A stretch of DNA of 29,927 nt from an uncultured Bacteriovoracaceae bacterium (lineage in GTDB: Bacteria; Bdellovibrionota; Bacteriovoracia; Bacteriovoracales; Bacteriovoracaceae). The stretch's first letter is position 1, and each line of letters begins with the position of its first letter. The position numbers and the translations under genes are program-made. Shown here piece after piece: positions 13,151-26,740 of the stretch. The notes under the pieces were generated by a model. The model was not told the origin of the DNA. It saw only the letters and a program-made list of their open reading frames with translations, and did no database searches. Location of the stretch: positions 1 to 29,927 of the forward strand of contig CAXGUD010000043.1 in NCBI GenBank assembly GCA_964012805.1, read 5' to 3'.

Positions 13151-13523
13151 GGGGGTGCCCTGGCTTCGACAGGGGACTGCGAGGTTTAATTTGCGTGTCT
13201 GGGTTGATCTCCCGGCCCAGTAAAAAGGAGATCAAACTATATTTGCTGAATCAAATGATTTTGCACCAGCGATGGCCGCTTAATTAGCGAATCCATTACT
13301 TGAGGGGCATGTCCCGATAAACAGAAACATGCAAGCAGGTTAAGGCGGCCTGTAAACTTGTCTTTCAGGAGTCGTCGGGTCTACCTGGTTAAAAAATCGC
13401 CGAGGTTTGCTGGGGATACAAAACCAGACAGCCTTGTTCCATGGCAATAATCTGGAACTACACACGTAGTAGGTTATTCTGAGAGTTCTTTGGACGTGGG
13501 TTCGATTCCCACCACCTCCACCA
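13151..13523 (+). ncRNA. ssrA: tmRNA, tag peptide (A)AESNDFAPAMAA
   Basis: 5' GGGGGTG pairs with 3' CACCTCC-A-CCA and includes a G3:U pair. 5' TTCGAC and T-loop GGTTCGATTCC are present. Tag ORF at 13245-13283 ends in AA-TAA. Confidence 0.97.
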
Positions 13524-21664: not shown

Positions 21665-22216
21665 TTAATTAGAAATTTGCTTAAGACCTTTCTTACAAGA
21701 AAAAGATGAACTGTAATCAAATATTTCTTTGCCGTTACGTGAAATAAGCTTATTAGTATTTGGTGTACAAAGAGCACCATATTGAGCAATTTGCTTGAGG
21801 CCCTTTTTACAATTATTAAGTGAACTATAATCGAAAACCTCTAGGCCGTTAGATGAAAAAAGTTTGTTATTATTAGGAGCACAAATAGCTCCATATTGAT
21901 TAAGTTGTTTAAGGCCTTTTTTACAGCTAGTAGATGAATTGTAATCAAATACTTCTTGTTCATTAAGGGAAATGAGCTTATTTTTATCAGGAGTGCAAAT
22001 AGCACTATATTGATTTCCAGATGCTCCGTTTACTCTAAGGACTCTATTAAGAAGTGATTTTATTCTATTTAGTTCTTTTTGATCCATTGAGTAGGCGTTA
22101 CTTTCTAAATAATCTGAAACATCGTAAGAAAGTTGGATGACTCTATCGGAATGAACTTCAGGAAAAGCTGATAAAGAATTGACTATAAAAACAAGGGCTA
22201 GAACTGCTTTTTTCAA
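21665..22216 (-). CDS. Secreted protein with three tandem 38-aa two-Cys repeats
   Basis: Signal peptide, GGAG RBS before the TTG start, and repeats QY.A.C.P..NKL.S.N..E.FDY.S...CKKGLKQ. Confidence 0.8.
   Translation of the reverse strand: MKKAVLALVFIVNSLSAFPEVHSDRVIQLSYDVSDYLESNAYSMDQKELNRIKSLLNRVLRVNGASGNQYSAICTPDKNKLISLNEQEVFDYNSSTSCKKGLKQLNQYGAICAPNNNKLFSSNGLEVFDYSSLNNCKKGLKQIAQYGALCTPNTNKLISRNGKEIFDYSSSFSCKKGLKQISN
21671..22012 (-). repeat. 3 x 114-bp coding tandem repeat
   Basis: Residues 69-106, 107-144 and 145-182 align without gaps. Confidence 0.9.
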
Positions 22217-23261: not shown

Positions 23262-24527
23262 CTATTGTAATTCCGCATTTTGCTTGGACTCTTCACTTTC
23301 AGACTCATTTGTCTGAACGACTTGATTCCAATCTCCAAAAGGGTCTTTCAACTGCTTTATAAAGTCAGCACTTCTACTAAGTTCTTCATCTGTGAATAAA
23401 CTTTCTTCAAGGGATTCTTTTATTTTATCCAGAATATCATTTTTACCTATGAAGACTAGTTTTTGCGACCGGTCTCCGAAATGTGGATGCCAGTTTTCTT
23501 TAATATAGGCCAGAGACTCTTCATCTTTAGGCCAATCCTCTTCATTAATACTTGTCCACCAAAATCCTTTAGGGTGATATTCTCTAACTGTTCCAGCTAT
23601 GGCCATCTCTGCCATAAAGTCAGGTTGAGAAGCAATCCAAAAAAAGCCTTTTGCTCTGTAAAGCCCAGGAAATGGCGTATGCAAAAATTTAAAGAAACGC
23701 TCAGGGTGAAAAGGTTTTCTTGCATCAAATGAAAAAGATGAAACCCCGTATTCGTCTGTTTCTTTGCTCTCATCACCTCTCATGACTTTTAACCAACCCG
23801 GTGACTGAGAAGCTTTATCAAAGTCAAATCTGTTAGTGTTAAGGATTTCATCAAGAGCGACTTTAGACCTTGAAGTTTCTATAACTTTAGCATCTCTATT
23901 AAGAGAGCGTATAATCCCATATAGATGTTTTAATTGATCCTTAGACACAAGATCTGTTTTGTTGATTAAAATGACGTCAGCAAATTCAACTTGATCAACT
24001 AGAAGGTGGGCAATGGATCTTTGGTCTTCCTCACTGAGTTCCATTTTCCGGTCTTTTAAATCTTCTGCACTTTCATAATCTTTTAAAAAATTCAAAGCAT
24101 CGATGACTGTAACCATGGTATCGAGCTTGGCAATTTTTGAAAGTGAAACACCATTTTCGTCTTCAAAGGTGAAGGTTTCGGCCACTGGTAAAGGCTCTGA
24201 AATACCGGTAGATTCTATAACAAGGTAATCAAATTTCTTTTGCTTAGCGAGTTCATTAATTTCTTCAAGGAGGTCTTCGCGCAATGTACAGCAGATACAG
24301 CCATTACTCATTTCAACAAGTTTTTCCTCTGTTCTCGATAAGCTCGCTTCAGCATTTTTTACCATTTCAGCATCAATGTTAATTTCGCTCATGTCATTAA
24401 CAATGACAGCGATCTTCTTTCCTTCTCTATTATTCAAGATATGGTTAAGAAGTGTAGTTTTTCCTGCTCCTAAAAAGCCAGAGAGGACGGTAACGGGAAG
24501 ACGAGATAGGTTATCATTGTTTTGCAT
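23262..24527 (-). CDS. zigA: COG0523 zinc metallochaperone GTPase (ZigA/YciC-like)
   Basis: [40 protein letters not shown] and a CobW_C domain (PFHPERF, RAKGFFW). Confidence 0.9.
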
Positions 24528-24762: not shown

Positions 24763-26307
24763 ATGTTTAATCATCCTGAAGGTCAGGCTCATCCGAGACC
24801 TCCTTCCCACCTCAAAAAGAGTAAGAGATACGATTTTGGAGAAGATATTCTTGGAGAAAGCTCCAAAGTTATAGAGGAGTTTTTAAAAAAAGAGAATCAA
24901 CTAAAAGATATATCTGAAATATCTTTGGCAAAGCAAGTTCGAAATTTTATTTATAAAAAAAGTAATAGAAAAAATTATGTTATTGAGGCCAAAAATTACC
25001 TTAAAAATAAAGAACTAATTTTCAGTGAGTATTATGATGTCATACTAGTAGGCGCAGGAGTTCACTCCGCAATTTATCTATATACAGTTAAGAAGAAGAA
25101 TCCAAATTTAAAGGTTCTAATTCTTGAGAAAAGTTCAGAAATATGCGCTACGTTCTGTAAACTAGGAGACTCGCTGGTTTTAAATTCTCCAACCTTTTCT
25201 AAAGTGGGTCTCAATTCTAATATTATGCAAGGTCATTTTATCCAGGTAAGTGATTTTGATGAACTCTTTGAAAAACCTTTTCCTACGGCTAAGCACCTTT
25301 ACGAGTTAGCAGTTATGACCCTATTTCACGCTGACGCTGATATCTTATTTGATTTTGAAGTAGAAAATATAAAAAAAGCCGAAGGTAAATATTCCCTTAA
25401 TTTTGAAAACAAAACGATTAACGCTAAAAATGTAGTCGTTTCAAATGGAATGGGAGGTAACAAGAAAAACTCTTTTCTAAAAGATATATCTTCACAAAAA
25501 CTAATTGCTGGTGACGATTTCCTCTCTCATTGCTACGAAGATAAATCTTTTTTTGAATATATCAGAGATAAAAAAGTTGCTGTTGTCGGTGCTGGAGATA
25601 CAGCAAACTGTGTAATGGAGTACCTTTTACCTTTAGTTTATCCAAATTATTATTATGGGTTTTACAGAGAGGTCCCCTTTTTTCCAAAATTTGTCTATTG
25701 GGTTGGTCAAAGTGCAAATAACATTCAAGACTATTTTTTTGCGAATAAATCAAGGTATTGTCATTCCGGTGGAATCATTGAATTTTTTTGGGATGAAGAA
25801 ACCCCTTTTGAACTATCCACTGAGATTTGGAAAAAGACAAAGGAGCTCATTAGGTGTGTTCCTGAAAAGCTTTTTTCTGTATCTCATAAGGTCAACTCAC
25901 TGGAACTTAAAACTGAAAATGAGCAGTTAGAGGTTGATCTAGTGATAGATTGCACTGGAAGATTTAATGATTTGAGTACAAAACTTTTAAAAAGTGAGCA
26001 TACTTTTGTTGAAGGAGATATAACCCTTTATGGTGGTCAATGGGATGAGGAGTTAGGTCGTTTTATAGTTTCTCCAAGATTTCTTGAAGAAAGGAGGATC
26101 GCTTGCAAGCTTCAAGGTGAAAATATTTTTTTTCTAGGAAGTGCTTGTCCCTTGGATAAACTTATTGACGATAACGAAGCAAGAAATGGCTCGCTAAAAT
26201 TCCAAGAAGACCGGACAAGCCTAACCAACAGCAAGTGGTCTCTGGAGCACACTTTACCTCGAACTGTAGCTTTTGCGGACAAGCACCAAGAAATACTTAG
26301 TGTCTAG
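24763..26307 (+). CDS. FAD/NAD(P)H-dependent oxidoreductase with two dinucleotide-binding folds (monooxygenase-like)
   Basis: DVILVGAGVHS...ILEK (FAD), KVAVVGAGDTA (NAD(P)H) and DLVIDCTG. Confidence 0.75.
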   Translation: MFNHPEGQAHPRPPSHLKKSKRYDFGEDILGESSKVIEEFLKKENQLKDISEISLAKQVRNFIYKKSNRKNYVIEAKNYLKNKELIFSEYYDVILVGAGVHSAIYLYTVKKKNPNLKVLILEKSSEICATFCKLGDSLVLNSPTFSKVGLNSNIMQGHFIQVSDFDELFEKPFPTAKHLYELAVMTLFHADADILFDFEVENIKKAEGKYSLNFENKTINAKNVVVSNGMGGNKKNSFLKDISSQKLIAGDDFLSHCYEDKSFFEYIRDKKVAVVGAGDTANCVMEYLLPLVYPNYYYGFYREVPFFPKFVYWVGQSANNIQDYFFANKSRYCHSGGIIEFFWDEETPFELSTEIWKKTKELIRCVPEKLFSVSHKVNSLELKTENEQLEVDLVIDCTGRFNDLSTKLLKSEHTFVEGDITLYGGQWDEELGRFIVSPRFLEERRIACKLQGENIFFLGSACPLDKLIDDNEARNGSLKFQEDRTSLTNSKWSLEHTLPRTVAFADKHQEILSV

Positions 26308-26396
26308 CAACAGCACTTTTCAGAGCAGCATTTGCATGACTTCTCTTTACAGCAAGGGCTATTGTTACAGTCACATTCACAAACTTTTTGATACAT
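26304..26396 (-). CDS. Metallothionein-like peptide, 30 aa (MYQKVCECDCNNSPCCKEKSCKCCSEKCCC)
   Basis: 11 Cys in 30 aa and an AAGGAGAG RBS just upstream of the ATG. Starts 13 nt after the ArsR stop. Not in the ORF track. Confidence 0.85.
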   Translation of the reverse strand: MYQKVCECDCNNSPCCKEKSCKCCSEKCCC

Positions 26397-26409
26397 AATT
26401 CTCTCCTTT

Positions 26410-26703
26410 TTAGAGGTCATTCTCAATTTGATTGGCAAGTTCTCTAAGCGTTTTAACCACGTTTTCCCGATCTAGAGTGTAAGTTCTTTCTCGACCTTTC
26501 TTTTCTAGTTTGACGACACCTTCTTGAGCAAGGATTTTGAGGTGGCGTGATACAACGGAGGCATCCACATTGCAGCACTCACAAAGGCACATGGCATTTT
26601 GAGGAGTACTACACTGACACAATTTGTAGACTAAAGAGAGCCTATTAAATTCTCCGAGCGCTTTTAGAAAGTTTGCTTGTTCTTGTATATCTAAATCTTT
26701 CAT
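26410..26703 (-). CDS. ArsR/SmtB-family metal-sensing repressor
   Basis: FLKALGEFNRL, SVVSRHLKIL and EKKGRERTY motifs with Cys cluster CQC...CLCECC. ATG 26703 is preferred because the TTG at 26730 lies inside the palindrome. Confidence 0.9.
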   Translation of the reverse strand: MKDLDIQEQANFLKALGEFNRLSLVYKLCQCSTPQNAMCLCECCNVDASVVSRHLKILAQEGVVKLEKKGRERTYTLDRENVVKTLRELANQIENDL

Positions 26704-26712
26704 GTCTTTTAT

Positions 26713-26740
26713 GTTTGCATATTTGCGCAAATAAGTAAAC
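26713..26740. promoter_or_regulatory. Candidate ArsR/SmtB operator
   Basis: GTTTGCATATTTGC|GCAAATAAGTAAAC inverted repeat with 12 of 14 positions symmetric, directly upstream of arsR. Confidence 0.75.

Follow-up and report, generated by a model that had tools for sequence, protein, structure and literature searches.

Architecture of the locus

Within the window, the whole 29,927-nucleotide stretch of DNA analyzed here, a gene for an ArsR/SmtB-family repressor is followed on the same strand by a 30-codon open reading frame (ORF) encoding MYQKVCECDCNNSPCCKEKSCKCCSEKCCC, a peptide with 11 cysteines (36.7%) and not a single histidine (Table 1). Situated 13 nt past the arsR stop codon, which ends at 26410, the ORF is preceded by its own Shine–Dalgarno (SD) element, AAGGAGAG. 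An earlier, sequence-only reading of this DNA had singled out just such a 30-residue, 11-Cys, His-free ORF with a ribosome-binding site, 13 nt beyond arsR, and the sequence agrees. The convergent oxidoreductase gene, whose product has weak family matches only (Pyr_redox_3; ArsO far below its cut-off), overlaps the stop codon of the metallothionein (MT)-like gene with its own by 4 nt, as it does at homologous locus L096, and is not a recurrent neighbor among homologous loci. Farther away, the gene for ZigA is followed by a 71-aa ORF without a Pfam family (23190–22975), and 21665–22216 on the minus strand encodes a 183-aa protein that has a signal-like N-terminus, three internal repeats of the form AICxPxxNKLxSxNGxEVFDYSS, and no Pfam family.

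Table 1. Genes and predicted regulatory elements of the cassette and its surroundings (positions in the window)
Feature	Position	Strand	Basis or remark
ZigA (COG0523) zinc metallochaperone GTPase, 1.8 kb away	23262..24527	-	NF038288, 619.5 bits (cut-off 600)
Convergent flavin-dependent oxidoreductase, 514 aa	24763..26307	+	Neighbor, outside the cassette
30-aa, 11-Cys metallothionein-like gene	26304..26396	-	Motif CxCxC-x4-CC-x4-CxCC-x3-CCC
Shine–Dalgarno element of the peptide gene	26401..26408	-	SD-like motif in homologs
ArsR/SmtB-family repressor, 97 aa	26410..26703	-	Cys29, 31, 39, 41, 43, 44; no α5 His site
Predicted −10 hexamer AAACAT (consensus AAATAT)	26711..26716	-	7 nt before the arsR ATG
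Predicted operator, 18-bp palindrome, fills the promoter spacer	26718..26735	.	Inverted repeat and conservation
Predicted −35 hexamer TTTACT (family consensus TTG[A/G]CA)	26734..26739	-	Aligned upstream regions of homologs

A conserved gene for a cysteine-rich peptide

The 30-codon ORF at 26396–26304 is a real, conserved gene. Among 34,454 ATG-started ORFs of 20–90 aa in the 4.47-Mb genome it ranks first in Cys-richness, the independent runner-up being a 21-aa ORF with 29% Cys, and this rank together with its conservation excludes a chance origin. Conservation was gauged at 160 fetched loci, 80 from genomes (of 119 confirmed) and 80 from metagenomes (of 136). At 148 of them the ArsR is at least 60% identical, and 142 of these have 150 nt or more downstream and are evaluable. 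The full CxCxC-x4-CC-x4-CxCC-x3-CCC motif lies downstream of arsR at 138 evaluable loci and is adjacent to it at 137; the sequence-only reading had proposed a scan for short Cys-rich ORFs conserved after arsR homologs, and such an ORF is what the scan returned. The other four evaluable loci hold damaged copies: truncated in L063, frameshifted in L132, decayed in L151, and ended by a premature stop in L157. L063, L151, and L157 are cyanobacteria-like loci in which the peptide gene is decaying or interrupted beside an intact arsR, and loss of the gene appears to occur in this lineage. Where the ArsR is ~40% identical, the motif peptide is found at none of 12 loci.

The 119 distinct peptides are 29–48 aa long, with a mode of 30; 113 of them have 11 Cys, seven have any His, which is never conserved, and four have any aromatic residue. 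Across 61 aligned sequences, 10 of the 11 Cys are invariant and the remaining one is more than 90% conserved. The 102 distinct 25-codon cores give pN/pS values of 0.12–0.26, a mark of purifying selection, with third codon positions the most variable, synonymous mixing of TGT and TGC at all 11 Cys columns, and an in-frame stop in none of the 102. Of 139 copies of the gene, 127 have an SD motif ahead of the start codon, compared with 9% of background ATGs, and a crude, uncontrolled test places a hairpin with a T-run 3′ of the gene in 57 of 137 homologs. RiPP precursors can be encoded by short ORFs rich in Cys, and translation of this peptide is only predicted. Even so, it is scarcely credible that the gene specifies a precursor from which a secreted peptide, modified or disulfide-bonded, is made, or that it is an untranslated element: the peptide bears neither a leader nor a signal peptide, no modifying enzyme or exporter recurs among the neighbor genes, and both the codon-level selection and the conserved SD speak against an element that is not translated.

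Promoter, operator, and transcription

Alignment of upstream regions gives a consensus of TTGACA, 17 nt, and AAATAT, the spacer holding the palindrome CATATTTGCGCAAATATG. This palindrome is present in 142 of 144 upstream regions (at least 13 of 20 matches). The copy at 26718–26735 is the best-scoring operator site of its genome, with 27.5 bits versus 19.0 for the next, and the site is essentially single-copy per genome. The sequence-only reading had assumed an operator here and had described a compact autoregulated metal-sequestration operon; the palindrome supplies the former, and of the latter the operator–arsR–MT layout stands, as a conserved anatomy, with autoregulation and sequestration carried forward below as predictions. 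No wider regulon was detected in five genomes, in which operator matches did not exceed a reversed control. A second operator-like site in G000, at C5:52984, falls within a long ORF and was rejected, and a generic promoter and terminator scan listed neither the arsR promoter nor a terminator. At L122, arsR and the peptide gene are separated by a DUF6702/HupE gene pair, and it is the peptide gene, not arsR, that has the palindrome in front of it; this arrangement links the operator to the peptide.

The arsR start codon falls 5–7 nt past the −10 hexamer in 109 of 144 homologs, which indicates a leaderless mRNA, and no SD was found before arsR in the aligned upstream regions. On this sequence evidence the arsR mRNA is probably leaderless. 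From 26730 to 26704 the operator and arsR share a reading frame, and gene callers therefore extend many homologs N-terminally across it, to 106–109 aa, and thereby mask the leaderless start.

Twenty marine metatranscriptome runs from 15 studies hold 64–83% of the words of the stretch. Among eight runs (eight studies) picked because they contain the stretch, seven have a single RNA contig that spans arsR and the peptide gene, and in the eighth the two genes are covered by two overlapping contigs, such contigs giving no strand, level, or proof of a single transcript. Their promoter-side ends, at 26640–26691, all fall short of the predicted start at 26703; the absence of RNA cover on the flanking genes was not counted as evidence. 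Elsewhere in the window, a tmRNA gene (13151–13523, plus strand; Rfam RF00023, 129.5 bits) is covered by RNA contigs in three of four runs examined.

The repressor and its arsenic-gene relatives

The repressor scores 25.2 bits against PF01022, above the cut-off of 22, and 54.4 bits against NF033788, whose cut-off is 55; its AlphaFold model (pLDDT 81.6) matches the folds of CadC and CzrA. The winged-helix profile and the predicted fold both place it in the ArsR/SmtB family. It has 845 relatives at E ≤ 0.001, and its six Cys are invariant across 36 that were aligned. A search of helix 5 for the SmtB/CzrA-type DxHx10Hx2(H/E) site found no His there, and because the sensor is without this His site, soft ions are expected as its ligand. 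The closest solved ArsR, both by profile (E = 2e-10) and by fold, is the Cd/Pb/Zn sensor CadC (S. aureus pI258; Listeria Lmo1102), which likewise carries Cys in its α3 region. Sensors of the CadC/AztR α3N type combine an α3 CxC with N-terminal Cys. The two differ in that the ArsR of the window is ~30% identical, is devoid of the N-terminal Cys pair, has the additional Cys29, Cys31, Cys43, and Cys44, and aligns its C39xC41 with the CVC of CadC only with a 3-residue gap; moreover, CadC controls an efflux ATPase, whereas this ArsR is predicted to control the peptide. A weak search that scored 7,995 candidates among longer proteins found no ArsR–peptide fusion.

In the tree, the ArsRs linked to the MT-like gene group together as one clade (100/99), itself embedded in a set of ArsRs located 5′ of arsM and hgcAB. 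Among these sisters, arsM is the next gene in L173 and L174, hgcAB in L166, and arsC is one gene further on in L003, while P0122 is an ArsR relative fused to ArsM. The sisters carry an operator resembling the palindrome of the MT clade, which has in turn lost their C-terminal CC and gained Cys39 and Cys41. Such kinship is an argument for an arsenic cassette, in which ArsR would have kept the As(III) response of its sisters and the peptide would bind about three As(III), with three thiolates each. As(III)-sensing ArsRs of the Ec, Af, and Cg types use an α3 C(V/A)C with a third Cys, a CCx5C in α5, or a CC at the N-terminus. The ArsR of the window has neither α5 nor N-terminal Cys; its α3 CLCxCC could supply three thiolates. 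According to excerpts of 10.1101/2022.10.17.512643, the P. mercurii ArsR before hgcAB, possibly of another subfamily, responds to As. The loss of the C-terminal CC argues the other way, as does the scarcity of ars-type genes, which occur near only one of the 80 genome loci (L078, convergent), and the eleven invariant Cys suit M4Cys11 better than a multiple of three. An arsenic cassette is, on balance, unlikely.

The sister loci offer further observations. In L166 (1040–2844), the ArsR lies directly 5′ of the mercury-methylation genes hgcA and hgcB, with a similar operator. In seven others (L162, L164, L165, L167, L168, L170, and L171) the sister ArsR comes second, behind a 413–426 aa protein without a Pfam or NCBIfam family, and the operator-like site sits before the gene for that protein.

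Relation to known metallothioneins

Sequence criteria for the MT superfamily comprise Cys content, CC, CxC, and CCC motifs, and few aromatics, with M4C11 domains of ~30 aa (excerpts of PMC13168519), and the peptide falls within them in size, Cys content, motifs, and aromatics; as a second criterion would have it, Cys are its most conserved residues and its gene is protein-coding. In joining a small Cys-rich protein to an ArsR/SmtB repressor, the cassette recalls the BmtA/SmtA systems of cyanobacteria (SmtB–SmtA, BxmR–BmtA). The peptide gene, however, lies in tandem behind its repressor gene, whereas smtA and smtB are divergently arranged. BmtA proteins are ~60 aa long with ~16% Cys (PMC13578184 Table 1) and possess His ligands, aromatic residues, and a conserved Tyr/Ala zinc-finger fold (PMC3323870, in part), whereas the peptide, at 30 aa and 37% Cys, has no conserved His, aromatics, or PF02069 match. 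Judged by a length of 55–60 aa, His ligands, and a Tyr/Ala core, the peptide family lies outside BmtA/SmtA. None of its 61 members matches PF02069 at E up to 10. Among 50 carrier genomes, BmtA was found in one and not in the other 49; the S. elongatus genome, as positive control, does match PF02069. Mycobacterial MymT is a Cu-metallothionein under RicR control that differs in length and His content. It resembles the peptide in being a bacterial MT outside the BmtA family (parts of PMC10612145 and PMC11672702), but none of the 61 members has an NCBIfam or Pfam match.

In length and Cys number, the peptide is more akin to the four-metal domains of animals (vertebrate, echinoderm, and mollusc α; ascidian 12C), with which it shares ~30 aa, 11 Cys, spacers of Lys, Ser, Thr, and acidic residues, and few aromatics. 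Such domains, with 11 or 12 Cys, each hold four divalent ions (PMC8476144 Table 1), and ascidian MTs act as one domain binding four ions (PMC8476144, in part). By analogy, a stoichiometry of four divalent ions per 11 Cys is predicted for the peptide, whose metal-free AlphaFold model has a pTM of 0.31. Compared by eye, none of the seven motifs tabulated in PMC8476144 Table 1 equals the peptide motif; the nearest, echinoderm α (CxCCx5[CxC]x4CCx4CCx4CC), has only the CxC-x4-CC-x4-C stretch in common with it. We infer that convergence is a likelier source of the resemblance than homology.

The 61 members have no match among Pfam MT models, NCBIfam, and the PDB, nor did the two peptides tested match PHROGs. 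A clear match to a described MT family, which the sequence-only reading had named as what would remove the novelty, thus came from none of these databases, and its expectation that gene callers miss the peptide accords with the absence of all ten exact peptides looked up, three of them from cultured strains, from a collection of 15 billion proteins. A profile of the 61-peptide alignment had no matches among 1.84 billion representatives, a null that is weak evidence because a 30-column, Cys-biased profile has little power. Scores in the ESM Atlas were low (best 0.79), with a Diptera-type MT cluster at 0.78 as a lead only, and an LSR match in Pfam (E = 0.38) was dismissed as compositional. The full-text literature searched holds no description of an arsR plus 11-Cys peptide cassette, on which subscription reviews and supplements beyond this coverage may bear, and for six core hexapeptides of the peptide it gave only two irrelevant papers; the four text supplements of PMC11705764 contain no match to the motif. 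The logic of a repressor with an MT is known; the peptide class, the tandem leaderless layout, and the sensor site are unmatched in the literature searched. The MT-like family, together with the ArsR subfamily and operator that belong to it, is apparently undescribed.

Genomic neighborhood and candidate metals

The 80 genome loci yielded 421 neighbor ORFs. BLAST against Pfam-annotated representatives labeled 79 of them, and of the 342 that remained, 283 were scanned over their first 330 aa, the 59 others being short or at an edge. Most neighbor genes are unrelated, and the cassette therefore stands alone. Its neighbor genes nonetheless lean to zinc. ZigA, ZnuA, DUF1826, or FolE2 lies within 3 kb at 16 of the 80 genome loci, the strict zinc marker being absent nearby in the other 64, and a looser list of zinc genes, chosen after seeing the data, raises the count to 28. 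Both DUF1826 and MerC-domain genes have a link to zinc. COG0523 is found near the cassette in 4 of 50 cases, compared with 0.14 expected (Poisson P ~1e-5, kinship ignored). Genes of COG0523 are often Zur-regulated (PMC11672702, in part), and bmtA, often unannotated itself, is sometimes near one (PMC3323870, in part). A gene neighborhood reveals where the cassette lands, not which metal is bound.

Conceivably, the thiolate-only sensor and the His-free peptide bind soft monovalent ions or Hg(II), making the peptide a copper, silver, or mercury thionein. The sensor ligands of ArsR are Cys only, MerC-domain genes adjoin the cassette in 4 of the 80 genome loci, and phage copies of the peptide gene lie behind iscU, Fe–S assembly being a known copper target. 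Like-minded regulation exists in BxmR, which answers Cu and Ag besides Zn and Cd (PMC11672702, in part). Yet no CopA, Cus, or multicopper oxidase is found among the 362 of 421 neighbor ORFs that were annotated, and in two of the four cases (L029 and L036) the MerC-domain gene accompanies zinc-limitation genes. A thionein for these softer ions is accordingly rated improbable.

Distribution and phage copies

Record titles place the carriers in at least eight phyla, namely Pseudomonadota, Cyanobacteriota, Planctomycetota, Myxococcota, Bdellovibrionota, Nitrospinota, Chloroflexota, and Calditrichota, and three are cultured: Alteromonas sp. 5E99-2, Ningiella sp. W23, and Parahalioglobus pacificus KCTC 23430. 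Habitat counts are not independent, because two isolate-name series account for ~35 of the 80 genome titles. The distribution is patchy. The strict pattern matched four of 401 genomes in the class of G069; three of the matches are real, G069 itself included, and all three have arsR. Across the phylum of the window's own genome (401 genomes), all but G000 among the matches listed were antisense poly-Gln/Ala repeats and were rejected, and 40 relatives of G000, two incomplete (68–72%) genomes of the same genus among them, yielded no close ArsR. In the tree, the ArsR of the window (represented by the 100% identical L095) pairs with a Nitrosomonadaceae sequence (99/94). We infer lateral spread of the cassette across phyla.

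Five marine T4-like phage contigs (L296–L300; e.g., L296:1495–2101) carry a 10-Cys version of the peptide, situated among head-closure and tail genes. The phage gene has its own SD in all four contigs with upstream sequence and a whole iscU/nifU auxiliary gene directly 5′ in three, and there is no arsR. A loose TGY pattern applied to viral sequences gave no real locus among 121, the matches being antisense poly-Gln/Ala repeats, and a second such search gave two among 120, both already among the phage contigs found. Relatives of arsR were found neither in viral contigs nor, at E 1e-12, in plasmids, and GenBank phages hold no match to the peptide. The NifU/IscU gene directly 5′ of the phage copies, together with the sister ArsR of L161, which precedes a soxC-like gene, could hint at a role in thiol redox or as a sulfur or Fe–S helper, in which ArsR would sense oxidants or persulfides and the peptide would be a thiol buffer or an iron or sulfur carrier. 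Some ArsRs do sense reactive sulfur or oxygen species via Cys, but persulfide sensors use an α2/α5 Cys pair (both from parts of PMC11672702) and the ArsR of the window has no α5 Cys. The fixed Cys spacing of the peptide, moreover, suggests a defined cluster. Such a helper role has a slim chance of being correct.

Proposed mechanism and implications

That the peptide sequesters a metal or metalloid is highly probable. That zinc and cadmium are its main target is a more modest claim, held with some confidence, and the explanation we favor, to a similarly moderate degree, is an autoregulated two-gene cassette in which a single-domain MT, under predicted ArsR control, buffers zinc and cadmium. In this cassette, a metal-free ArsR dimer would occupy the palindrome between the −35 and −10 elements and block RNA polymerase, until soft metal at the six-Cys patch (α2–α3 region) released it. 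One mRNA, on which arsR is leaderless and the peptide gene has an SD, would then yield little repressor and much peptide, the latter folding round about four Zn(II) or Cd(II) as an M4Cys11 cluster; as free metal fell, repression would return. Several observations count against this reading: the ArsR has neither a zinc site of α5 His nor the pair of N-terminal Cys known from CadC, sister ArsRs with a similar operator precede arsM, hgcAB, and, one gene further on, arsC, and the phage copies lie behind iscU without arsR. The cassette probably suits marine cells that are equipped with strong zinc-scavenging systems and require somewhere to put a sudden surplus. In marine Synechococcus it is BmtA that banks zinc (PMC9337993, in part), a parallel to the proposed role in which both protein and regulator differ.

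Characterized bacterial MTs are few and mostly of one class (PMC13578184, in part). The present family has a different Cys pattern, is carried by genomes that mostly gave no BmtA (49 of 50), and does not appear in protein catalogs. It may represent, with a chance we put a little short of even, an independently evolved class of bacterial MT, about half the length of BmtA, that converged on the 11-Cys four-metal cluster of animals, acquired a repressor rewired from an arsenic-gene lineage, spread laterally through at least eight phyla and T4-like phages, and constitutes an unseen zinc and cadmium store in ocean microbes lacking BmtA. A 30-residue peptide can be synthesized directly, and one can therefore test at once which metal it prefers, in what stoichiometry, and whether it has converged on the domains of animals. 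The ArsR–operator pair is predicted to embody a new type of ArsR sensing site and is a possible biosensor part. More broadly, the family suggests that the metal stores of many bacteria are hidden below gene-calling limits. A ~112-aa His-rich protein without a Pfam family, which adjoins the cassette in L029 (3526–3861), L038 (533–871), and L116 (1156–1503), is a candidate for a second metal store.
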